Notes: generated from the letters alone by a model not told the origin. A stretch of 64,000 nucleotides of DNA from Patescibacteria group bacterium (GCA_022703425.1 JAKLDQ010000002.1:12876-76875); one strand, 5' to 3'; shown: positions 5,685-19,489, counted from the stretch's first letter. Made by a program: numbers and translations.

Positions 5685-8099
5685 ATGTTTATTCTTACAA
5701 AAATTTTCGGCGACACAAACGACAAAATCATAAGCAGGCTGCAGCCGAAAGTGGAAAAAATAAATTCTTTGGAAGCCGATTTTGCAAAGCTTTCTGACGA
5801 CCAGCTCAAAGGGAAAACAGCGGAGCTTAAAGAAAGATATGCAAAAGGCGAAACTCTGGACGATATTCTTCCGGAGGCTTTTGCTTTGGTCCGCGAGGCG
5901 TCAAAAAGAAACTTGAATCAGCGCCATTTTGATGCCCAGCTTATCGGCGGAATGGTTTTGCACGAGGGAAGAATCGCCGAAATGAAAACCGGAGAAGGAA
6001 AAACTCTGGCGGCAACGCTTCCTGCCTTCCTGAATGCGCTCACAGGAAACGGCGTCCACATTGTCACTGTAAACGATTATCTGGCAAAGAGAGACATGGT
6101 CTGGATGGGGCAGATATACAGCGCCCTTGGGCTATCGGTAAGTTGTATTACAAATGAATCGGGCTATATTTACGACAAACAATATTCTGAAAAAGACGAA
6201 CAGCGCGATGCAACGGGTTCGTTCAGGGTTATTCAGGATTTTCTGAAGCCCTGCTCAAAACAGGAGGCTTATTCTGCCGACATCACATACGGAACCAACA
6301 ACGAGTTCGGTTTTGATTATCTGAGAGACAATATGGTTTATGAGGCAAAAGACAGGGTGCAGAGAGGATTTAATTTTGCAATTGTAGACGAAGTCGACTC
6401 GATCCTGATAGACGAAGCGCGCGTCCCCTTGATTATTTCGGGCGCGCAGGAGGAGGCAACAGACAAATATTATCAGTTCGCAAAAATCGTCGCCCCTTTG
6501 CAGAAAGAGGAGGATTATACGATGGACGAAAAAATGAAAGCAGTGATGTTTACAGACAAAGGGCAGGAAAAAGTCGTAAAGAGGCTTGGCTCTGATCCGT
6601 GGGCCGATAACGACATTACTGCAACACACCAGCTTGAATCAGCCCTAAGGGCGAAAGCACTTTTCTTAAAGGACAGGGATTATGTCGTCAAAGACGGCGA
6701 GGTGATGATTATAGACGAATTCACCGGAAGAATTTTGCCGGGCAGAAGATGGTCAGCCGGACTGCATCAGGCAGTCGAAGCAAAAGAAAATGTCAGGGTT
6801 CAGCCGGAATCAATTACTTTCGCAACAATTACATTTCAGAACTACTTCAGATTATACAAAAAGCTCTCGGGCATGACGGGCACGGCTTTGACTTCGGCAG
6901 AAGAAATGGACAAAGTTTACAAGCTTGAAGTTGTAACCATTCCCACAAACAGGCCAATGCAGAGAAAAGATTTTTCTGACAAGGTATTTAAAACAGAAAA
7001 CGGAAAATACATGGCCGTGGTCAAAGAAATAAAAGAGCTTCACGAGAAAGGCCAGCCCATACTTGTGGGAACAAGATCTGTGGAAAAGAACGAATATCTC
7101 GGAAAAGTTTTGGAAGTTCAGGGAATTCCCCACGAAATTTTAAATGCAAAGAACCATCAGCGTGAGGGAGAAATCATAGCTCAGGCAGGAAGAAGAGGCG
7201 CTGTTACAATCGCAACAAACATGGCGGGAAGAGGAGTTGATATTATTCTTGGCGGAAATCCGCCCGACCCCAAAGAGGCGGAAGAAATAAAAAATCTTGG
7301 CGGACTGCACGTAATCGGCACAGAAAGGCACGAGGCAAGAAGAATTGACAATCAGCTGAGGGGAAGATCGGGAAGACAGGGAGATCCGGGCTCAACCCAG
7401 TTTTTTGTTTCCCTTGAAGATGACCTGATGAGAATTTTCGGCGGAGACAGAATCAAGTCGCTGATGAACGCGCTGAATGTTCCGGAAGACGAGCCGATAC
7501 AGGCGAAAATGATTTCGGGGGCCATTGAATCTGCACAGGGAAAAATTGAGGGCTTTAACTTTGACGCCAGAAAACATTTGCTTGAATACGACGATGTAAT
7601 GAACAAGCACAGAGAGATTATATACAAGAGAAGGCGCGAGTTCCTCGAATCTGAAAATCTTAAAGAGAAAATACTGGAGATTGCCCAAAAAAGCGGAATC
7701 AGCTCCGAAGATTATGAAAAGAAGGAAAAAGAAGTCGGTTCAGAAGACATGCGTAAAATCGAAAAATACGCCAGCCTGCGGGTTCTGGATATGTTTTGGC
7801 AAAATCATCTTTCAGACATGGAGCATTTAAGAGACTCTGTAAGACTGCGCGCATACGGCGGAAAGGATCCTTTGATTGAATACAAAAACGAAGGGCACAG
7901 ATTGTTCCAGCAATTATTGCAGCTGATAGATGAAAATATCGCCCAATCCATTATGCACGCAATTTTGAACAAGCAGACAACACCGCCTCCTGCACCCCAG
8001 AAAAACGTTCAGAAGTCAGATTCCGGCGAACAAGTCGGGAGAAACGACCCATGTCCGTGCGGTTCGGGCAAAAAATTCAAAAAGTGCCATGGAAAATAG
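5685..8099 (+). CDS. secA: Preprotein translocase ATPase SecA
   Basis: Motor motifs MKTGEGKT, VDEVDSILIDEA and TNMAGRGVDI. C-terminal zinc finger CPCGSGKKFKKCHG. Confidence 0.95.
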   Translation: MFILTKIFGDTNDKIISRLQPKVEKINSLEADFAKLSDDQLKGKTAELKERYAKGETLDDILPEAFALVREASKRNLNQRHFDAQLIGGMVLHEGRIAEMKTGEGKTLAATLPAFLNALTGNGVHIVTVNDYLAKRDMVWMGQIYSALGLSVSCITNESGYIYDKQYSEKDEQRDATGSFRVIQDFLKPCSKQEAYSADITYGTNNEFGFDYLRDNMVYEAKDRVQRGFNFAIVDEVDSILIDEARVPLIISGAQEEATDKYYQFAKIVAPLQKEEDYTMDEKMKAVMFTDKGQEKVVKRLGSDPWADNDITATHQLESALRAKALFLKDRDYVVKDGEVMIIDEFTGRILPGRRWSAGLHQAVEAKENVRVQPESITFATITFQNYFRLYKKLSGMTGTALTSAEEMDKVYKLEVVTIPTNRPMQRKDFSDKVFKTENGKYMAVVKEIKELHEKGQPILVGTRSVEKNEYLGKVLEVQGIPHEILNAKNHQREGEIIAQAGRRGAVTIATNMAGRGVDIILGGNPPDPKEAEEIKNLGGLHVIGTERHEARRIDNQLRGRSGRQGDPGSTQFFVSLEDDLMRIFGGDRIKSLMNALNVPEDEPIQAKMISGAIESAQGKIEGFNFDARKHLLEYDDVMNKHREIIYKRRREFLESENLKEKILEIAQKSGISSEDYEKKEKEVGSEDMRKIEKYASLRVLDMFWQNHLSDMEHLRDSVRLRAYGGKDPLIEYKNEGHRLFQQLLQLIDENIAQSIMHAILNKQTTPPPAPQKNVQKSDSGEQVGRNDPCPCGSGKKFKKCHGK

Positions 8100-8688
8100 T
8101 GTCGATGAAATTTTAAAACAGATTAAAGAAGAGGTGATTAACTTAAAAGAATCTCCTCTTTATTCTATTAGGGTGCAAAACAAAGTTTTTCCTGTAATAG
8201 GGGAAGGAAATCATCAGGCAAAAATAATGTTTATCGGCGAGGCTCCCGGCAAAAACGAAGCTTTGACCGGGCGCCCTTTTTGCGGGGCTGCCGGAAGGAT
8301 TCTCACAGAAATGCTGGATTCAATAGGTCTGGACAGAAAAGACGTTTACATTACAAACATCGTAAAAGACAGGCCTCCGGATAACCGCGATCCTATGCCA
8401 AACGAAATAGCGCTTTATGCCCCTTTCTTAGACAGGCAGATAGACGCCATAAAGCCGAAAGTAATTGCCACATTGGGCAGATTTTCGATGGCATATATAA
8501 TGGAAAGGCTGGGTTTAAAGGACAGCTTAAGTTCCATAAGCCAGATGCACGGAAAAACATTCGGCGCAAAATCGACTTTTGGCGAAGTAAAAATTGTTCC
8601 TCTTTATCATCCGGCTGTGGCTCTCTATCAAAACAGCCTGAAAAAAGATCTGTTCGAGGATTTCAAGGCGATTAAGAATTTAATTTAA
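8089..8688 (+). CDS. Family-4 uracil-DNA glycosylase
   Basis: GEAPGKNE and GRPFCGAAG motifs, plus C-terminal LYHPA. Overlaps the secA stop by 11 nt. Confidence 0.8.
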   Translation: MENSVDEILKQIKEEVINLKESPLYSIRVQNKVFPVIGEGNHQAKIMFIGEAPGKNEALTGRPFCGAAGRILTEMLDSIGLDRKDVYITNIVKDRPPDNRDPMPNEIALYAPFLDRQIDAIKPKVIATLGRFSMAYIMERLGLKDSLSSISQMHGKTFGAKSTFGEVKIVPLYHPAVALYQNSLKKDLFEDFKAIKNLI

Positions 8689-11501: not shown

Positions 11502-11540
11502 GTTTAAAAGAGGGGAAAAAGCCGAAAAACCCAAAAAACC

Positions 11541-11570
11541 TGAACGGCTCACTCCGGAGTGAGCCGTTCA
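11541..11570. repeat. 30-bp perfect palindrome tgaacggctcactccggagtgagccgttca (left copy)
   Basis: Read directly. An identical copy lies at 19425-19454. It has no T-run, so it does not look like a simple terminator. Confidence 0.9.
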
Positions 11571-11600
11571 GGAAGTTGAGAAAACGCGTTTTTTCATTAT

Positions 11601-11647: not shown

Positions 11648-13225
11648 ATGACAGAAGATCAAAAAAGAGTATTGGAGAGACAGCTTTGGGCAGTGGCAAA
11701 TATTTTGCGCGGCAAGATGAATGCCGATGAATACAAGAACTATATTCTTGGTTTTATTTTTTATAAATATCTTTCAGAAAAGCTAGAGCACTACTGTGAT
11801 GAAAAGCTCTTGAATAGAGATAAAATAAAATTTTCGGAAATCAAAGAAAACACAAACGAGGGTAAAGAAGTACTGGAAGAGGTTAAAAAAGCCTGTGTTG
11901 GGCATTTGGGATTTTTCCTAAAGCCAACACAGCTTTTTTCTTATATTGTAAGAAAGGGTAAGGGAGAGATAAAAAATCAAGACAAATTCATAATAGAGGA
12001 TTTAAAAAATATATTAGATTCCATCGAAAAAACTTCAATGGGTACTGCGAGCGAAGATGATTTTAAGGGTTTGTTTGATGACGTTGATTTAACTTCAACA
12101 AAGCTTGGTTCTCGCGAAAATCAAAAGAATGAAACGATAACAGAAGTTTTATCTGAATTAGCTGGTATAGACTTTAAACTTGAGGATTCAAAAAGTGATC
12201 TTTTGGGCGATGCATACGAATATCTAATCGGCGAATTTGCCGCCGGTGCAGGCAAAAAGGGAGGAGAATTTTATACTCCAGCTCAAGTCTCTCGTTTATT
12301 AGCTAGGATTGTTGTAGATGATAAAAAACGCATAAAATCTGCGTATGATCCCACTTGTGGTTCGGGTTCACTTTTACTTCGTTTGGGCGAATTTACAGAA
12401 GTGGTTAATTATTTTGGTCAGGAATTAAACCCAACCACCTATAATCTCGCAAGAATGAATATGATTTTGCATGGAGTTCGTTTTGATAAATTTAGAATCT
12501 TGCAAGGAGACACTTTAAGGGAAGATATGCATGCGGATCTTAAGGCAGAAGTTATTGTTGCAAATCCTCCTTTTTCTGCAGAGTGGAAAGGAGAAAGTGA
12601 TCCTCAGTTGGTACACGATGATAGGTTTTCTCAGTACGGTCGGTTGGCGCCAAAAAGTGTCGCAGATTATGCTTTTGTGACACACATGCTTTACCATTTG
12701 TCAGACAATGGAATAATGGCTGTCGTTTTGCCTCATGGAGCCTTGTTCCGTGGTGGAGCAGAGGGACATATAAGAAAATACATTATTGAAAAGCAGAATT
12801 ATCTTGATGCTGTGATTGGCTTGCCATCAAACTTGTTTTATGGAACCTCAATTCCAGCTACGGTTTTAGTGTTTAAAAAATGCAGAAAAGATGACGAAGA
12901 TATCTTGTTTATTGATGCCTCAAAGGAATTTGAAAAAGGTAAAAATCAAAACAGGCTGACAAGCGAAAACATAGAAAAGATTTTTGACACTTATAATAAT
13001 CGCAAAGAGATTAAAAAATATTCTCACATGGCCAGTTTGCCTGAAATAAAAGAAAACGAATTCAATTTGAATATTCCGCGTTATGTAGATACTTTCGAGG
13101 AGGAAGCAGAAATTGACGTTGAGGCGGTGGCAAAGCAGCTAAAAGAATTAAATAAAGAAGAAGCTGATTTGCAAAATAAGCTTGAAAAATTTTGCAACGA
13201 ATTAAAAATAAATAAACCATTTTAA
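11648..13225 (+). CDS. hsdM: Type I restriction-modification system methyltransferase subunit
   Basis: HsdM N-domain. SAM motif DPTCGSGSLL and catalytic NPPF (VIVANPPFSAEW). Confidence 0.9.
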   Translation: MTEDQKRVLERQLWAVANILRGKMNADEYKNYILGFIFYKYLSEKLEHYCDEKLLNRDKIKFSEIKENTNEGKEVLEEVKKACVGHLGFFLKPTQLFSYIVRKGKGEIKNQDKFIIEDLKNILDSIEKTSMGTASEDDFKGLFDDVDLTSTKLGSRENQKNETITEVLSELAGIDFKLEDSKSDLLGDAYEYLIGEFAAGAGKKGGEFYTPAQVSRLLARIVVDDKKRIKSAYDPTCGSGSLLLRLGEFTEVVNYFGQELNPTTYNLARMNMILHGVRFDKFRILQGDTLREDMHADLKAEVIVANPPFSAEWKGESDPQLVHDDRFSQYGRLAPKSVADYAFVTHMLYHLSDNGIMAVVLPHGALFRGGAEGHIRKYIIEKQNYLDAVIGLPSNLFYGTSIPATVLVFKKCRKDDEDILFIDASKEFEKGKNQNRLTSENIEKIFDTYNNRKEIKKYSHMASLPEIKENEFNLNIPRYVDTFEEEAEIDVEAVAKQLKELNKEEADLQNKLEKFCNELKINKPF

Positions 13226-13227
13226 GC

Positions 13228-13575
13228 GTGGAACTAAAACAATTTGTAAAAAACGTTTTAAAAGATATAACAGAGGCGGTCGAAGAAACACGAAAAGAGT
13301 CATCTAGAGATATGCATTTGGATAGCTCAAAGGATCAACGCACCGTTGAGTTTGATGTTGCCGTAACGGCCGAAGATGTAACATCGGCTACTGGTAAAGC
13401 CGGGGTGAAGGTTTTTTCTGTTTTGGAGGGAGGAGGCGAAGTGGGGAAAGAGGTAAAAAGTTCATCGGTGAGCAGGATTAAATTTGGAGTTTCAGTAGAT
13501 AGATGGACTAAACAAGAAAATGCCGGTTTTCAAAATCAATTTCATCAATTAGACGATAGAAATAGTGCTAAATAA
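13228..13575 (+). CDS. Small protein resembling the trypco2 conflict-system domain
   Basis: GTG start 2 nt after the hsdM stop; its TAA overlaps the hsdS ATG (TAATG). The pattern is helix, then VEFDVAVTA, GKAGVKVFSVLEGGGEVGKE and SRIKFGVSV. Confidence 0.45.
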   Translation: MELKQFVKNVLKDITEAVEETRKESSRDMHLDSSKDQRTVEFDVAVTAEDVTSATGKAGVKVFSVLEGGGEVGKEVKSSSVSRIKFGVSVDRWTKQENAGFQNQFHQLDDRNSAK

Positions 13576-14852
13576 TGCCAACAAAGACTCCTATAAAATT
13601 AGAAACAAAAAAAGTCCCGAAACTCCGATTTCCGGGTTTTTCTGATTCATGGCAAAAGAAAAAGCTAAAAGATATTTTAGTTGAGCATAAGGCAAGAAAC
13701 GTCGGTAATAAATATGTTGAGGTATTTTCTGTCGCCAAAGAAAAGGGCGTTATAAATCAAATAGAACACCTCGGAAGATCATTTGCAGCAAAAAATTTAA
13801 CAAATTACAAAGTTGTTTTTCCAGACGATGTTATATATACGAAAAGTCCAACAGCCAATTTCCCCTATGGAATTATTAAGCAAAACAGGACCAACCGGAT
13901 TGGTATTGTGTCGACGCTCTACGCAGTTTATCGGCCACAAAATAAATACATAGGATATTTAATACACGAATATTTTTTATCTTGGGTACACACATATAAT
14001 TACTTGGTGCCATTGGTTCAAAAGGGAGCGAAAAACACCATTAATATTAGTAATAATGATTTCTTGAATGGCTCAATATTGTGTTTGCCGCTATCTGAAA
14101 AAGAGCAACAAAAGATTGCGGGGTTTTTGATTGTGGTGGATGAATGGATTGAGAATTTGAGGGAACAAAAAGAAACGCTGGAGCAATATAAAAAAGGAAT
14201 GATGCAAAATATCTTTTCTCAAAAAATCCGCTTCAAAGACGATAACGGTAAAGATTTCCCAAAATGGGAAGAGAAAAAAATAAAAGAAGTTGGGAAAATC
14301 TGCAACAGTAGTGTTGATAAAAAGATAATAGATGGGCAAGAGCTAGTTCTGTTGCTAAACTATATGGATGTCTATAAAAGAAACCGAATTTACAGTAAAG
14401 ATAAATTCCAAGAGGTCTCTGCAACACCTTTGCAAGTAAAATCATGCGATCTAATAGAGGGTGATATTTTATTTACACCAACCTCGGAAACTCCTGATGA
14501 TATAGGACATTCCGCTGTCGTAATGGAAAATTTAAACAAAGTATTATTTAGTTATCATCTGATTCGTTTAAGACCCGAGTCTATTGTCTTAAACAAAGAC
14601 TTTTCCGCTTATGCTTTCCATAATTTTTCATTTTATAAAAAATTATGGAGAATAGCGCAGGGAGCCACAAGATTTGTGTTGCCAAAAGATGGTTTTGAAA
14701 AAACTACAATAAATATTCCAAAATCCAGGGAGGAGCAGAAGAAAATCGCAGAGTTTTTGACTTCAATTGATAAAATAATAGAATCAAGGCAACAACAAAT
14801 CACCCAAGCCAAACAATGGAAAAAAGGCTTGATGCAACAGTTGTTTGTGTAA
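13575..14852 (+). CDS. hsdS: Type I restriction-modification specificity subunit
   Basis: Two target-recognition halves. Each ends in a conserved helical spacer (LREQKETLEQYKKGMMQNIFSQKIRF and QQQITQAKQWKKGLMQQLF). Confidence 0.85.
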   Translation: MPTKTPIKLETKKVPKLRFPGFSDSWQKKKLKDILVEHKARNVGNKYVEVFSVAKEKGVINQIEHLGRSFAAKNLTNYKVVFPDDVIYTKSPTANFPYGIIKQNRTNRIGIVSTLYAVYRPQNKYIGYLIHEYFLSWVHTYNYLVPLVQKGAKNTINISNNDFLNGSILCLPLSEKEQQKIAGFLIVVDEWIENLREQKETLEQYKKGMMQNIFSQKIRFKDDNGKDFPKWEEKKIKEVGKICNSSVDKKIIDGQELVLLLNYMDVYKRNRIYSKDKFQEVSATPLQVKSCDLIEGDILFTPTSETPDDIGHSAVVMENLNKVLFSYHLIRLRPESIVLNKDFSAYAFHNFSFYKKLWRIAQGATRFVLPKDGFEKTTINIPKSREEQKKIAEFLTSIDKIIESRQQQITQAKQWKKGLMQQLFV

Positions 14853-14854
14853 AT

Positions 14855-16258
14855 ATGTTTATTAAAGAACTTAAGATTAAAAATTTTAGATTATTTCCGA
14901 GTGATAGTGATTTTTCAATAGAAAATGTCAATGTCCCAGATTTACAAAATGAAGGAAGCGGTTTAAATTTATTTGTCGGTGAAAATGGATGCGGAAAAAC
15001 AACTCTGCTAGATGCTTTCGCTTTGCCTTTACTCCAATACAAAGCAGATAGTTTTTCTATTAATGACTTTAATAATCCCCAAGACAAATGCTATCTAAGT
15101 ATCTTATCTGAAGAGAATTTTACCGTCGCTAAAACCGTTCCAAGAAGTTATTTTGAGGCAAAAGGATTTTCGTTCGATGGCCGTGTTAGATCTAGGGAAA
15201 ATAGGATATATTTGTCATCCATTGTAGTTACAAATCAAGAATTTATACCAACAAACCCGGAAAGTTTTAAAGAGAATAGTCCTGACTTGAGAATAAAAGT
15301 CGATAATCCATGGGCGGGACCTAGATTTACCGAAAATGATATTGTTGTTTTAGACAAAAATCGAATAAACCAAACTCGTTCGGGAGTTTATAATTCCACA
15401 AGATTTGATCGGCTCTTGGAAGATTTTGATTTTCAATATATCAAGAACGGCAATATTGATGATTTGTGTGAAACTATAAAAAAATCTATACAGGGGGTAG
15501 AAAACGAATTTCTCAAAAAAGCGATGGTCAAATTTGAAGAAATTAGTAGGGAAAAAATTTCTTTGAATTATATAGATAATTGGCGACCACATAGCAAAGC
15601 TTTTCTAGGGACGCAAAAAGAAAACAAGCAACTTATACCTCTTAGTATGCTAGGTTCTGGATACGAAATGATTTTTTCTCTTATTTATTCTTTTTATCTT
15701 TCCCAGCAAAGCGGAAAACAGCTCATAATTTTAATCGATGAACCCGAATTGCATCTCCACCCTAAGATACAAGAAGATTTTGTCAAAATTTTATTAGAAT
15801 TTTCAAAGACTGCTCAGATTATTTTGACAACTCAATCTCCGCTTTTAGTAAAGCAGGTCATGTACAACGATAAGGCGAAAGTCAGTGTAATAAAGAAAGA
15901 TGTTAATAGGGTCTACATTTCTCCGCTAGACGATCGGCTTTTACCATATGTATCTGCTAACGAAATTAACTTCATAGCTTATGATTTTGCAACAGAAGAA
16001 TATCATAATGAACTTTACGAAGAATTGCAAATTAGAGAAAACAATAAGCGAGCCGCGCCATTATGCTTAAAGGATTTTGATCTACATTTTTTTCAAAAAG
16101 AAAAAGGGGAGATAGCAGATCGTCCGTACAACGGGAGTAGTAACCAAGTTAGTATTCACACGCATTTAAGAACCCAAATTCATCATCGGGGAACTTCTGG
16201 AAGACCAGATGCTGCAGAAATAGAAGCGTCAATAAAAAAAATGAGAACATACTTTTAG
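14855..16258 (+). CDS. ABC/SMC-like (AAA_15/21-type) ATPase with uncharacterised C-terminal domain, embedded between hsdS and hsdR
   Basis: Walker A GENGCGKTT, signature-like LSMLGSGYE, Walker B LIILIDEPELHLHP. The C-terminus contains SIHTHLRTQIHHRG. ATG at 14855, 2 nt after the hsdS stop. Confidence 0.75.
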   Translation: MFIKELKIKNFRLFPSDSDFSIENVNVPDLQNEGSGLNLFVGENGCGKTTLLDAFALPLLQYKADSFSINDFNNPQDKCYLSILSEENFTVAKTVPRSYFEAKGFSFDGRVRSRENRIYLSSIVVTNQEFIPTNPESFKENSPDLRIKVDNPWAGPRFTENDIVVLDKNRINQTRSGVYNSTRFDRLLEDFDFQYIKNGNIDDLCETIKKSIQGVENEFLKKAMVKFEEISREKISLNYIDNWRPHSKAFLGTQKENKQLIPLSMLGSGYEMIFSLIYSFYLSQQSGKQLIILIDEPELHLHPKIQEDFVKILLEFSKTAQIILTTQSPLLVKQVMYNDKAKVSVIKKDVNRVYISPLDDRLLPYVSANEINFIAYDFATEEYHNELYEELQIRENNKRAAPLCLKDFDLHFFQKEKGEIADRPYNGSSNQVSIHTHLRTQIHHRGTSGRPDAAEIEASIKKMRTYF

Positions 16259-16260
16259 CT

Positions 16261-19068
16261 ATGACGCATCAAAGCGAACAACAACTTGAGAAAGTTTTAA
16301 TCAGTCAGCTGCAGAGGCTGGGTTTTTCGGTTGTTGAAATTAAAGATTCCGACAAATTGATTTCTAATCTACGTGGGCAGTTGGAAAAATTTAATCAAAC
16401 AAAGTTTTCTGATGACGAATTCCTAAAAATTTTAAATCACTTAAATAAGGGCGATAGATTTGAAAAAGCCAAAACTTTGCGTGATAGGTTTGTATTGAAA
16501 AGAGATGACGGAACCGACTTTTGGGTTAGGTTTTTTAATATGGATCAGTGGTGTAAAAATGAATATCAGGTGACTAATCAAATTACTCAGGTGGGAAGAT
16601 ATGAAAACCGATATGATGTGACCTTATTGATAAATGGATTACCATTGGTGCAAATAGAGCTCAAACGCCGCGGAGTGGAAATGAAAGAAGCATTCAATCA
16701 AATACAAAGGTACCAAAAACACACATATTCGGGAACGCTTTTTGAATATATTCAAATGTTTGTTATATCTAATGGGGTAAATACAAAGTATTTTTCCAAC
16801 AATCCAAAACAAACATTCGAACAGACTTTTTATTGGACTGACGTAAATAACAAAAAAATAACAAAATTAGACGAATTTGCAAATGAATTTTTGGCAAAAT
16901 GTAATGTTTCTGAAATGATTGCTGAGTTTATTGTCTTGGCTGAATATTACAAAATTCCAATGATAATGAGGCCATATCAGTACTATGCGGTGAAGGCTAT
17001 TGAGGAAAGAGTAAAGGAGTCAGGTAAAAATGGATATATCTGGCACACAACTGGCTCAGGTAAAACTTTAACATCTTTTAAAACTAGCCAAGTGCTTTCA
17101 AGAATCCCCGAAGTTAAGAAGGTGCTTTTTGTGGTAGATAGAAAGGACCTCGATATTCAAACAACAAAGGAATTCAATTCTTTTTCCGATGGTTCCGTTG
17201 ACGGCACAGACAATACTCACCACTTAGTCGACCAATTGAAAGATAAGAGAAAAACAAAACTGATTGTAACAACAATACAAAAATTAGATATAGCTATCAG
17301 CAGAGAGTCTTATATCAAACAATTTAAGTATTTAGAAAACGAGAAGGTTATAATCATCTTTGATGAATGTCATCGAAGTCAATTTGGGCAAACACACGCA
17401 AGAATTAAGTCATTTTTCAAGGGTGCGCAACTTTTTGGATTCACCGGAACCCCAATTTTTGCTGATAATAATGTTGGTGGTGTTACAACAAAAGACGTTT
17501 TTGGGGATTGCCTACACAAATACATAATAACAAACGCAATTTCTGATAATAATGTGCTTGGGTTTGCGGTGGAATATGTTGGAAAATACAGACAAAAAGC
17601 GCCAGATACTCTGGATGCAGATATATTTGCTGACGAATTGGTCGAAAACATTAACCGAGAAGAAATTTTTGCAAGCGATGATCGCCTAAATAAAATTGCA
17701 GATTATATTTTGGCAGATTGGAAGAGGAAAACAAAAAACGGCAAGTTTAATGCCATTTTTGCAGTTTCAAGTATTGATGTTTTAAAAAAGTATTATACTC
17801 TGCTAAAAAGCAAGAAATCAGAAAATTTCAGAATTGCTACAATTTTTACTTATCACGCCAACGAAGATGAGAGTTCAGACATGCTTGATATTGATGTGTT
17901 TGCAGACGAGGGGAAACCAGAAAATAAGTATTCGAGGGAATTTTTAGAAGATTGTATTAAGGACTACAATAAGCTCTATTCTACAAACTATTCTACAGAA
18001 CGTTTTTATGATTATTACAAAAATTTACAAAAAAGGATTAAGGATAAAGAAGTTGATTTGGTGCTGGTGGTAAATATGTTTTTGACCGGCTTTGATAGTC
18101 CAAGACTGAATACATTGTATGTAGACAAAAATCTGAGATATCACGGATTAATTCAAGCATATTCAAGAACAAACAGGCTTTTAAATTCAGATAAACCTCA
18201 CGGGAACATAATTTCTTTTAGAAATTTAAAGCAAGCAACTGACAAAGCCTTGGCTCTTTTTGGTGACGAAAATGCAAAAGAAGTCGTTTTTAAGAAGCCA
18301 TACGAAGATCAAAAGAGGGATTTTGAAAATAAGTTGAGGGAATTAAGAGAAAAAGTTCCTACTGTAGATTCTGTTGACAGCCTGCAGGGCGAAGAAGAAC
18401 GTGCAGAATTTGTTAAAACCTTTAGAGATTTATTACGCATTAAGGCTTCTTTAGAAACTTTTGCAGAGTTTTCCTTCAGCGACTTAGGTATTTCAGAACA
18501 GGAATTCTACGACTATCAAAGTAAATATTTAGATATTTACGAGGAAAGGAAAAATCATGATCGAGAGAAAGAATCTATTTTAGACCAAATTGATTTTGAG
18601 CTTGAATTAACAATCCGCGACGTTATTGATTATGATTATATCATACGATTAATAGCTGGGCTTAAAAACATTAGTTCCAAAGCTCTTCGAGAAAAGAAAA
18701 CGGAAGAAATTTTGCGGTTGTTTGATAGGGATGCAAAATTACGCAAGAAGAAGGATTTGATTAGAAAATTTATTGAAGAAAATCTTCCCAAAATTGGCAA
18801 AGCCGATGATGTTGAAAAAGCATTTGGCGAGTTTTGGGAAAGTGAACGTTCGAAAAATTTAAAAGATTTAGCAAAATCAGAAAGTATTCCGGTTGAAAGT
18901 ATAGAAAAGTTAATTGGAGAATATCTATATACACAAAAAATTCCTCATGGAGACGACATCATAGAAATGTTGCCAGAAGAAAAACGACCCAGAATTATGC
19001 AAAGGCAAGGAGTTGTTGACCGTATCAGGAAAGCAATTAGAAATATAATAGATATATTTGAGTGGTAA
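16261..19068 (+). CDS. hsdR: Type I restriction enzyme endonuclease/translocase subunit
   Basis: Walker A TTGSGKT, DEAD box FDECHRSQ, helicase C-domain; 935 aa. Confidence 0.9.
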   Translation: MTHQSEQQLEKVLISQLQRLGFSVVEIKDSDKLISNLRGQLEKFNQTKFSDDEFLKILNHLNKGDRFEKAKTLRDRFVLKRDDGTDFWVRFFNMDQWCKNEYQVTNQITQVGRYENRYDVTLLINGLPLVQIELKRRGVEMKEAFNQIQRYQKHTYSGTLFEYIQMFVISNGVNTKYFSNNPKQTFEQTFYWTDVNNKKITKLDEFANEFLAKCNVSEMIAEFIVLAEYYKIPMIMRPYQYYAVKAIEERVKESGKNGYIWHTTGSGKTLTSFKTSQVLSRIPEVKKVLFVVDRKDLDIQTTKEFNSFSDGSVDGTDNTHHLVDQLKDKRKTKLIVTTIQKLDIAISRESYIKQFKYLENEKVIIIFDECHRSQFGQTHARIKSFFKGAQLFGFTGTPIFADNNVGGVTTKDVFGDCLHKYIITNAISDNNVLGFAVEYVGKYRQKAPDTLDADIFADELVENINREEIFASDDRLNKIADYILADWKRKTKNGKFNAIFAVSSIDVLKKYYTLLKSKKSENFRIATIFTYHANEDESSDMLDIDVFADEGKPENKYSREFLEDCIKDYNKLYSTNYSTERFYDYYKNLQKRIKDKEVDLVLVVNMFLTGFDSPRLNTLYVDKNLRYHGLIQAYSRTNRLLNSDKPHGNIISFRNLKQATDKALALFGDENAKEVVFKKPYEDQKRDFENKLRELREKVPTVDSVDSLQGEEERAEFVKTFRDLLRIKASLETFAEFSFSDLGISEQEFYDYQSKYLDIYEERKNHDREKESILDQIDFELELTIRDVIDYDYIIRLIAGLKNISSKALREKKTEEILRLFDRDAKLRKKKDLIRKFIEENLPKIGKADDVEKAFGEFWESERSKNLKDLAKSESIPVESIEKLIGEYLYTQKIPHGDDIIEMLPEEKRPRIMQRQGVVDRIRKAIRNIIDIFEW

Positions 19069-19096: not shown

Positions 19097-19399
19097 ATGG
19101 ACCAAATTGTTTATTTTATAATCGGAGGAGTTGTGGGGATTGTTGCGGGGTATTTCTCTGCAAAAATGCTCAAAGACCAAAGCAATGAAAGGAAACCGCG
19201 GGTGGAACTGAAGGAAAAGAATAAGGAAAAAATTTTAAAACAGTTGAACGAGAGGAACAAGATCTCCAACGATGATGTTGAGAGGTTGCTTGGCGTGGCG
19301 GATTCTTCGGCAACGCGGTATTTAGAAGAACTGGAGAAAGAGGGGAAGATAAAGCAGGTTGGCAGAACCGGCCAGAGCGTTTTCTACCAAAAAAAGTAA
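19097..19399 (+). CDS. Small protein with N-terminal TM helix and C-terminal winged-HTH
   Basis: VYFIIGGVVGIVAGYFSA TM segment. wHTH-like SATRYLEELEKEGKIKQVGRTGQSVFY. Confidence 0.5.
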   Translation: MDQIVYFIIGGVVGIVAGYFSAKMLKDQSNERKPRVELKEKNKEKILKQLNERNKISNDDVERLLGVADSSATRYLEELEKEGKIKQVGRTGQSVFYQKK

Positions 19400-19403
19400 A
19401 AAT

Positions 19404-19417
19404 CTGAACGGCTCACT
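19404..19417. repeat. Partial (half) copy of the 30-bp palindrome
   Basis: ctgaacggctcact matches the left arm, 7 nt upstream of the full right copy. Confidence 0.8.
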
Positions 19418-19424
19418 AAAATCA

Positions 19425-19454
19425 TGAACGGCTCACTCCGGAGTGAGCCGTTCA
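19425..19454. repeat. 30-bp perfect palindrome tgaacggctcactccggagtgagccgttca (right copy)
   Basis: Identical to 11541-11570. The adjacent aggggaaaa...acccaaaaaa string also recurs next to the left copy. Confidence 0.9.
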
Positions 19455-19489
19455 GCTAAGGGGAAAATCCGGTTTTAGAACCCAAAAAA

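Follow-up and report, generated by a model that had tools for sequence, protein, structure and literature searches.

The 64,000-nucleotide (nt) stretch of DNA analysed here, derived from a Patescibacteria group bacterium (GCA_022703425.1 JAKLDQ010000002.1:12876-76875) and referred to in its full length as the window, contains between hsdM and hsdS of a Type I restriction-modification (R-M) operon a gene for a small protein of 115 amino acids (aa) on the + strand (13228..13575, GTG start), the product of this open reading frame (ORF) being, according to Pfam, conservation and AlphaFold2, a probable, distant member of the Trypco2/Pepco family. It is not an R-M subunit; the gene occupies one of two hypervariable slots of the operon as optional cargo, while its closer relatives recur inside unrelated Type I R-M operons and within other defence-type modules. 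We slightly favour the view that a divergent Trypco2/Pepco member, carried by a horizontally acquired Type I R-M cassette in its hypervariable slot between hsdM and hsdS, would serve as an embedded abortive-infection pore effector.

A conserved gene co-translated with the R-M genes

The stop codon TAA of hsdM (13223-13225) is followed by the dinucleotide 'gc' and directly thereafter by the GTG of the 115-aa ORF at 13228, while at the distal end the last A of its own TAA (13573-13575) is common to the ATG of hsdS (13575-13577), giving TAATG. With a distance of 2 nt on the hsdM side and of -1 nt on the hsdS side, the coordinates, the junctions and the geometry of translational coupling recorded in a preliminary description of this DNA, made from the sequence alone, are confirmed, and the four peptide segments it named are all present in the translation. 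In related loci the junctions are likewise tight, the gaps ranging from -17 to +19 nt. No Shine-Dalgarno sequence precedes any gene of the operon, the 115-aa ORF included, and therefore all junctions look like termination-reinitiation couplings. As read from the 2-nt and overlapping junctions and the absence of a Shine-Dalgarno sequence of its own, the ORF is transcribed and translated with the R-M genes. Between hsdM and the ORF, a search for internal promoter or terminator elements gave weak consensus matches only, not enriched over shuffles, and the GC content at third codon positions (GC3) of the ORF, 0.29, agrees with that of the R-M cassette.

A word-indexed search identified 82 clusters of homologous proteins with 34-100% identity, nearly all of 110-125 aa and beginning with MELKxF, and the GTG start is validated because the homologs begin in this way. 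A profile search among 1.84 billion representatives extended the family to 4,784 matches at E<=1e-3, of which 1,760 were found at E<=1e-10, almost all being stand-alone proteins of 90-130 aa. The 115-aa ORF is thus a real conserved gene and not a chance ORF. Discarded from the matches was P0206 (3,614 aa; E 2.4e-19 against the family profile), an adhesin with immunoglobulin-like repeats which accumulates its score from 24 summed weak repeat matches; false positives of this type bear on counts of family size.

Recurrent embedding in Type I R-M operons

The neighbourhoods of relatives were surveyed in 80 genome loci, in which ORFs were called and neighbours typed by tblastn, jackhmmer and Pfam. 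The 51 closest loci, with at least 39% identity, come mostly from Patescibacteria of the Candidate Phyla Radiation (CPR), Omnitrophota and some DPANN. Fifteen of these 51 are situated inside Type I R-M operons as compared with none of the 29 loci of distant relatives (Fisher p = 6.6e-4), and with an assumed background of 5-10% for Type I R-M the p value for the close loci lies between 1e-8 and 1e-4. Together with three further R-M-embedded metagenome relatives detected by exact-protein look-ups (P0004, P0014 and P0027), embedding of the subfamily recurs in 18 loci besides the window, and the adjacency to hsdM and hsdS, which the preliminary description had suggested surveying among homologs, is thus a recurrent one.

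The HsdM proteins hosting the subfamily fall into three lineages with 73-80%, 37-41% and ~27% identity to the HsdM of the window. The insertion point is either the hsdM-hsdS junction, at times with a Bro-N or RhuM gene preceding, or the junction of hsdS and hsdR; in the window, L001, L014, L087 and L094 the gene immediately follows hsdM and is itself followed by hsdS. Further genes embedded in the same operons are phage-defence candidates and include RhuM/PDC-S05, Bro-N/PDC-S13, PDC-S32, PDC-M36A, Fic, HEPN-AbiU2, PIN_12 and NYN. Bro-N genes are frequent, not constant neighbours (L002, L007, L039, L090, L092). A two-gene cassette was considered and rejected, as an all-versus-all phmmer comparison of the 27 other inserted proteins gave one NYN pair only. 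In a rough neighbour-joining tree R-M and other contexts are intermixed, with 12 of the 17 members of the window clade residing in Type I R-M operons. Across unrelated Type I R-M operons, and also in other modules of the defence type, the subfamily is found embedded time and again.

A number of individual arrangements were noticed in the course of this survey. P0007 lies in an island with a methyltransferase, Bro-N and a zeta toxin, and other links to R-M comprise MmeI (L031) and N6_N4 methylases (L034, L041, L042), while a distant member has a PstI-like enzyme as its neighbour (L079). In one R-M operon with a Trypco2 gene (L009 4919-9736), hsdM is immediately preceded by the gene for a canonical LexA (LexA_DNA_bind and S24), and an ORF joining LexA domains with an N6_N4 methylase stands beside the Trypco2 gene in L041 (6214-7707), which may be an artefact of ORF calling. 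In L047 the Trypco2 gene (8001-8296), which precedes an OLD-family ATPase-TOPRIM gene as well as a Type I R-M operon, appears frameshifted (tblastn matches to residues 1-63 and 62-99) and is likely a pseudogene.

Optional cargo in hypervariable slots

To what extent the gene belongs to its own R-M lineage is seen from 80 metagenome loci with the closest relatives of the window HsdM (63-84% identity, plus the window's own locus, L174), of which 65 had enough downstream sequence to be informative. The Trypco2 gene is present in one of the 65, namely L174, and a fixed subunit of this R-M lineage is thus rejected by the 64 informative loci without the gene. On the other hand, other inserts of at least 200 nt occupy the hsdM-hsdS slot in 27 of 52 loci and the hsdS-hsdR slot in 31 of 40. 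These inserts (L175-L253) are very diverse and mostly unannotated; an example is an unrelated ORF likewise of 115 aa in L177 (7583-7930). Because one of 65 loci carries the gene and the slots hold diverse inserts, the 115-aa gene represents optional cargo, housed in one of two hypervariable slots, and not an R-M subunit. The preliminary description had taken the protein for a module recruited into a Type I R-M operon; a functional role within the R-M system is not supported, given the single carrier in the lineage and the proteins of ~70% identity in contexts other than R-M.

Assignment to the Trypco2/Pepco family

Trypco2 was named for its co-occurrence with trypsin-like peptidases in NTP-dependent conflict systems, and was first defined in vWA-MoxR and STAND systems (Kaur et al., eLife 2020, PMC7159879). 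Trypco1/2 has since been renamed 'Pepco' (Evans et al. 2025, bioRxiv 10.1101/2025.11.14.688446), and Pepco/Trypco2 has been reported to be more abundant in prokaryotes than any other family of protease-associated effectors. The sole Pfam family matched by the 115-aa protein is Trypco2 (PF19631), with E 2.7e-5 and 24.8 bits versus a gathering score of 24.2, residues 1-86 aligning to positions 1-74 of the 78 of the model. Equally, 40 of 45 relatives match Trypco2 and no other model (best E 3.4e-7), about 12 homologs carry a precomputed PF19631 mark and a 60%-identical homolog is named 'trypco2 family protein' by NCBI. The experimentally characterised SsPepco of Streptomyces subrutilus, the sequence of which was taken from the supplement of Evans et al. 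(2025), scores 65.6 bits on the same model.

Because PF19631 is matched narrowly while direct profile comparisons, given below, fail, membership of the window protein in the Pfam family is probable and its relation to SsPepco remote. The Trypco2 call of the preliminary description has held, with a small margin and with failing tests against profiles of the SsPepco clade. Within the collected sequences, an iterative jackhmmer search did not bridge the window subfamily and the SsPepco set. A sequence search of the PDB with the family profile returned chance matches to ribosomal uL24 only (E 0.006), models for the 115-aa protein are absent from PADLOC, NCBIfam and PHROGs, and tblastn of curated phage and plasmid collections gave no match to it.

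Protein architecture

Alignment of the relatives identifies invariant or near-invariant positions in an N-terminal amphipathic helix (L3, F6, K8, L11 and V18), followed by an EFDVAV strand, a GKAG-strand-EGGGE loop and an SRIKFGV strand as further conserved elements. A motif specific for the subfamily comes after the SRIKFGV strand and consists of I/V90, which lies at the end of the last strand and is conserved in 54 of 58 relatives, and T94-K95-x-E97; the subsequent tail is variable. Beyond residue 97 the tail of the window protein is Q/N-rich and predicted to be helical, without a conserved Ile among the 58 relatives. The possibility that Ala99-Gly100 is a cleavage site of the S24 (LexA) type was rejected, as Gly100 is present in just five of the 58.

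The AlphaFold2 monomer of the window protein consists of a helix (residues 3-24), strands at 27-32 and 39-47, a glycine-loop region of low confidence and a long strand (81-94). In the monomer predicted for a 91%-identical relative of SsPepco, a helix (6-23), strands at 36-46 and 52-56, a low-confidence loop and a strand (73-83) succeed each other, so that the order of secondary structure elements agrees between the two models. The N-terminal helix of the window protein is strongly amphipathic (hydrophobic moment, muH, 0.57-0.64), and hydrophobic and charged residues alternate in its strands (27-32, 39-47, 81-94). A DNA-binding or enzymatic domain is not found in the 115-aa protein.

Other genomic contexts of relatives

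Outside R-M operons, a conspicuous module combines the Trypco2-like gene with a MazG-like pyrophosphatase and a Schlafen-group-3 (SLFN; Nhi/AbiO-like) helicase fused to a C-terminal S24 (LexA/UmuD-type) peptidase (L003 8001-10760, L004 8001-10753, L030 5346-8360). In L003 and L004 the Trypco2 proteins are 69-70% identical to the window protein. In L051 and L083 the Schlafen-group-3 helicase occurs without S24, with a trypsin gene situated 4 kb away in L083. The MazG/SLFN-helicase-S24 module is a candidate protease-effector pairing, with a type of peptidase that has not been reported for Pepco, and the S24-helicase fusions of these sister loci point to protease gating as a possibility within the clade.

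Equally, neighbour typing revealed five loci, each time in different candidate phyla, in which the Trypco2-like gene is located 24-59 nt downstream of full-length DnaK in a grpE-dnaK operon of the housekeeping type (L006 6039-8360, L013 2528-4850, L015 1681-4010, L016 6050-8321 and L024 5991-8400). An integration hotspot may underlie this adjacency, or a connection with the EACC1-protease-DnaK fusions that have been reported. In L015 a NUDIX-GrpE fusion is also encoded upstream.

Distant relatives with at most 38% identity are found on IMG/VR contigs (L096-L173) in prophage regions, mostly of one gut-type sample set. A CI-like helix-turn-helix (HTH)-S24 repressor is encoded two genes away in 17 of 63 viral-contig loci (e.g. 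L113 6001-7243). HNH endonuclease and terminase genes lie near distant relatives in other viral contigs.

The host operon and its boundaries

The genes hsdM (11648..13225, + strand; HsdM_N and N6_Mtase, E 1.9e-109), hsdS (13575..14852, +; Methylase_S, E 2.2e-15) and hsdR (16261..19068, +; HSDR_N, SWI2_SNF2, T1R_D3-like and EcoR124_C, with an EcoR124-like C-terminus) encode the methyltransferase, specificity and restriction subunits. All three are intact in one operon, which according to Pfam is a bona fide Type I R-M system. Not mentioned in the preliminary description is a second cargo gene between hsdS and hsdR, which codes for an ABC-type AAA_15/AAA_21 ATPase (14855..16258, +; Pfam, PADLOC and PDB matches). 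Its longest ORF extends from 14816; the likely true start is the ATG at 14855 (MFIKELKIKNF...), 2 nt past the hsdS stop, and its own stop lies 2 nt before the start of hsdR. The ATPase resembles AriA of PARIS (PADLOC 9.7e-27), PtuA, GajA and OLD, with matches to the OLD, AriA and PtuA structures in the PDB at 4e-8 to 2e-7 (AriA 2.3e-7), while the C-terminal ~130 residues are without a domain match. PARIS (AriA-AriB) was considered for the ATPase and not borne out: AriA models match, but the TOPRIM nuclease partner AriB is absent from the operon, where Pfam shows no TOPRIM, DUF4435 or nuclease domain and no partner gene for the ATPase. Homologs occupy the same hsdS-hsdR slot in L199 (52% identity) and L232 (48%).

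A 59-nt direct repeat, identified by repeat search at 11534..11592 and 19418..19476 with an additional half-copy at 19403-19417, brackets the block from hsdM to hsdR including the adjoining winged-helix gene. The two copies are 80% identical overall and identical in the perfect 30-nt palindromic core CTGAACGGCTCACTCCGGAGTGAGCCGTTCAG; there are just two of them in the window versus 0 expected by chance. With GC3 of 0.27-0.33 in the hsd cassette versus 0.43-0.53 in the flanking core genes, the repeats and the shift suggest either the two ends of an inserted cassette or a terminator hairpin that was duplicated. Just past hsdR, at 19097-19399 (+), lies a gene with a host-like GC3 of 0.535, the 100-aa product of which combines a transmembrane-like helix at the N-terminus with a winged-helix domain for DNA binding. 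Homologs of this protein, which may be a regulator, occur near related R-M operons in L002, L039, L046, L188 and L210. Neither MazG, SLFN helicase nor DnaK was found in the window, and according to Pfam no STAND, MoxR or vWA genes are present in the operon.

Proposed function and alternative explanations

The only experimental work on the Trypco2/Pepco family concerns SsPepco, a protein of 117 aa that constitutively forms SDS (sodium dodecyl sulfate)-resistant beta-barrels of 9-10 subunits and whose cleavage after Ile97 is carried out by the adjoining SsAvs4 with its trypsin-like domain (Evans et al., 2025). Upon proteolytic removal of the C-terminal tail, Pepco permeabilises membranes. The truncated SsPepco alone kills Escherichia coli, for which both the amphipathic N-terminal helix and the alternating strands are required (Evans et al., 2025). 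By homology to SsPepco, the window protein would oligomerise to form a small beta-barrel in which the N-terminal amphipathic helices are arranged as a ring and which would stay latent until the C-terminal segment is removed or displaced; the activated barrel would then permeabilise the membrane and abort the infection. Such a pore effector would constitute a second line of defence riding on the expression of the R-M operon. Because no protease is encoded beside the 115-aa gene, the activator would have to act in trans, be it a host or a phage protease, or activation in this clade may be non-proteolytic.

Several observations weigh against a Pepco-type pore effector in this position. Its main weaknesses are the marginal family assignment and the dependence of the suggested toxicity, oligomerisation and defence role on homology. 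The window protein exceeds the PF19631 threshold by just 0.6 bits. Comparison by hhalign of the subfamily profile, built from 45 or 230 sequences, with the Streptomyces Pepco clade is not significant (probability 0.2-1%, E 0.05-0.28), and a search with the hidden Markov model (HMM) of the subfamily does not detect SsPepco. Of the checks proposed in the preliminary description, the Pfam search was positive, with PF19631 above the gathering score, whereas Foldseek of the AlphaFold2 monomer against the PDB retrieved nothing below E = 2, and the PDB offers no solved structure for comparison. Furthermore, the tail differs from the Pro/charge-rich, disordered tail of SsPepco, a protease is found neither in the operon (Pfam) nor in the 64-kb window (tblastn with trypsin, SsAvs4-protease and S24 seeds), and no partner gene is conserved across the R-M-embedded loci. 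About half of the close loci are outside recognisable defence contexts (dnaK in five; gyrA, ribonucleotide reductase, an extracytoplasmic function sigma factor), and distant relatives adjoin sucAB, recJ and kdpD.

The nesting among hsd genes might itself be functional. In a guardian role comparable to that of PrrC, the HsdM2HsdS core would hold the co-translated protein latent, and a phage anti-restriction protein (Ocr/ArdA/Stp-like) inactivating the Type I enzyme would release it for suicide by pore formation without a protease. PrrC within EcoprrI and PARIS sensing Ocr provide precedents (PMC1484252, PMC10802454), and in the present case the embedding in three unrelated Type I lineages, always with coupled junctions, the location directly between hsdM and hsdS in the window and four other loci, the AriA-like ATPase in the same operon and the lack of both a protease and another conserved partner are in line with this idea. 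Still, we judge it unlikely: 36 of the 51 close loci are without Type I R-M, while PrrC is almost exclusively R-M-linked; 69-70% identical proteins belong to MazG-SLFN-S24 modules; in the same R-M lineage the gene is confined to the window's own among 65 loci; the position varies between the M-S and S-R slots, with R-M partners too diverse for a conserved interface; and most embedded systems tested to date work independently of the host system. A broader version, which we hold to be improbable to a similar degree, envisages a protease-independent 'tripwire' Pepco clade as guardian of restriction, with the protein made stoichiometrically with HsdM and HsdS, inert, and released by anti-restriction proteins or by a phage (e.g. 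prohead) or stress protease that clips the C-terminal helix. If true, this would represent a one-gene abortive-infection module without a dedicated sensor in minimal CPR genomes.

That the protein is a toxin at all can equally be questioned, as the homology to the characterised toxin clade hangs on one marginal HMM score. A small oligomeric protein linked to stress or chaperones, or a factor for the establishment or regulation of R-M with a Trypco2 fold, could hitch-hike in a permissive slot; the R-M slots take very diverse cargo, the position right after the grpE-dnaK operon recurs in five loci of different candidate phyla and many close and distant relatives have housekeeping neighbourhoods. 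The conserved architecture of a pore-former, with amphipathic helix, strands and Gly-rich loop, the strong enrichment in R-M and defence modules, the lack of a DNA-binding or enzymatic domain and the presence of distant relatives beside CI-like repressors in prophage immunity regions, a classic site of exclusion genes, make this explanation an unlikely one. Least credible, and in our estimate very improbable, is the 'adaptor or sensor module' of the preliminary description, by which a component of an NTP-dependent conflict system would bridge sensor and effector after recruitment into R-M. The original definition of Trypco2 beside trypsin-like peptidases in vWA-MoxR and STAND systems, its designation as an effector-associated domain in one later paper and the ABC ATPase in the same operon speak for it. 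The single experimental study shows Pepco/Trypco2 itself to be a death effector, with the truncated protein alone killing E. coli (Evans et al., 2025); moreover, the ATPase is not a conserved partner, since none of the other R-M-embedded loci has it, L047 encoding an OLD-family protein that is unrelated, and the operon is devoid of STAND, MoxR and vWA genes. Among these possibilities, an embedded pore effector remains the reading to which we lean.

Relation to known systems and significance

Compared with the SsPepco-SsAvs4 system, the window protein shares the match to PF19631, a similar size (115 versus 117 aa) and the common order of amphipathic helix, amphipathic strands, Gly-rich loop, last long strand and a C-terminal tail of ~20-25 residues. 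Both are encoded by small stand-alone genes in defence contexts, and close relatives of the window protein adjoin a peptidase, the S24 domain fused to an SLFN-type helicase. In contrast to Pepco, the window gene resides inside a Type I R-M operon without an adjoining protease or STAND/Avs sensor. The tail is Q/N-rich and predicted to be helical instead of Pro/charge-rich and disordered, and the cleavage-site Ile is not recognisable in the window subfamily, where T-K-x-E is conserved. By sequence, the subfamily is connected to the characterised clade through the Pfam HMM only. The hosts are mostly Patescibacteria (CPR), Omnitrophota and DPANN as opposed to actinomycetes or cyanobacteria, and the linked peptidase of the subfamily is S24 (LexA/UmuD type), while trypsin or caspase is linked to Pepco. 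Restriction, S24 peptidases and helicases are not mentioned in connection with Pepco by Evans et al. (2025).

Embedded defence genes and protease-gated pore effectors are each already known. With PrrC of the Type Ic R-M system EcoprrI the window gene has in common a suicide-type effector gene nested among hsd genes and co-expressed with them, and a plausible logic of back-up for restriction. PrrC differs in being an ABC-ATPase/RNase with demonstrated physical association, an almost exclusive linkage to R-M and T4 Stp as trigger, whereas the window gene encodes a non-enzymatic protein of 115 aa that is R-M-linked in just ~30% of close loci. Cargo among hsd genes has equally been described in the guilt-by-embedding survey (Payne et al. 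2024, 10.1101/2024.01.29.577857) and for TgvAB in the Type I R-M system of Vibrio cholerae (PMC11411939). The operons of the subfamily hold candidates that also figure there, PDC-S05 (RhuM), PDC-S13 (Bro-N), PDC-S32 and PDC-M36A, and the M-S and S-R slots are likewise hypervariable. As far as the accessible parts of these sources extend, Trypco2 is absent from the text and supplements of the survey, from its published candidates and from PADLOC v2.0.0; the survey is based on RefSeq genomes, whereas the window clade is almost confined to uncultured metagenome-assembled genomes of the CPR type.

Prophage immunity regions commonly harbour exclusion genes, as exemplified by rexAB beside cI in lambda. 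The distant relatives with at most 38% identity resemble these by adjoining CI-like HTH-S24 repressors on viral contigs; this applies to the distant branch only and not to the window gene, and there is no sequence relation to RexA/B.

The preliminary description had presented the context as one it did not know to be described, and in fact no paper was found that links Trypco2/Pepco with restriction-modification, nor does PADLOC have a model. Trypco2/Pepco inside an R-M operon without a linked protease is a setting undescribed for the family. The sole known logic of Pepco is the cutting of the tail by a linked protease with subsequent opening of the pore, and no protease was found in any of the R-M-embedded loci. 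The window clade departs from this logic in three ways, by repeated nesting in Type I R-M operons, by the lack of a linked protease and, where a peptidase is linked, by its fusion as S24 to a Schlafen-like helicase. If true, the proposed function would mean either that a pore-forming immune effector can be activated by a new route, or that restriction has a back-up of a new type. Furthermore, it adds a candidate defence gene for Patescibacteria/CPR, organisms with a poorly known immune repertoire which RefSeq-based surveys miss.

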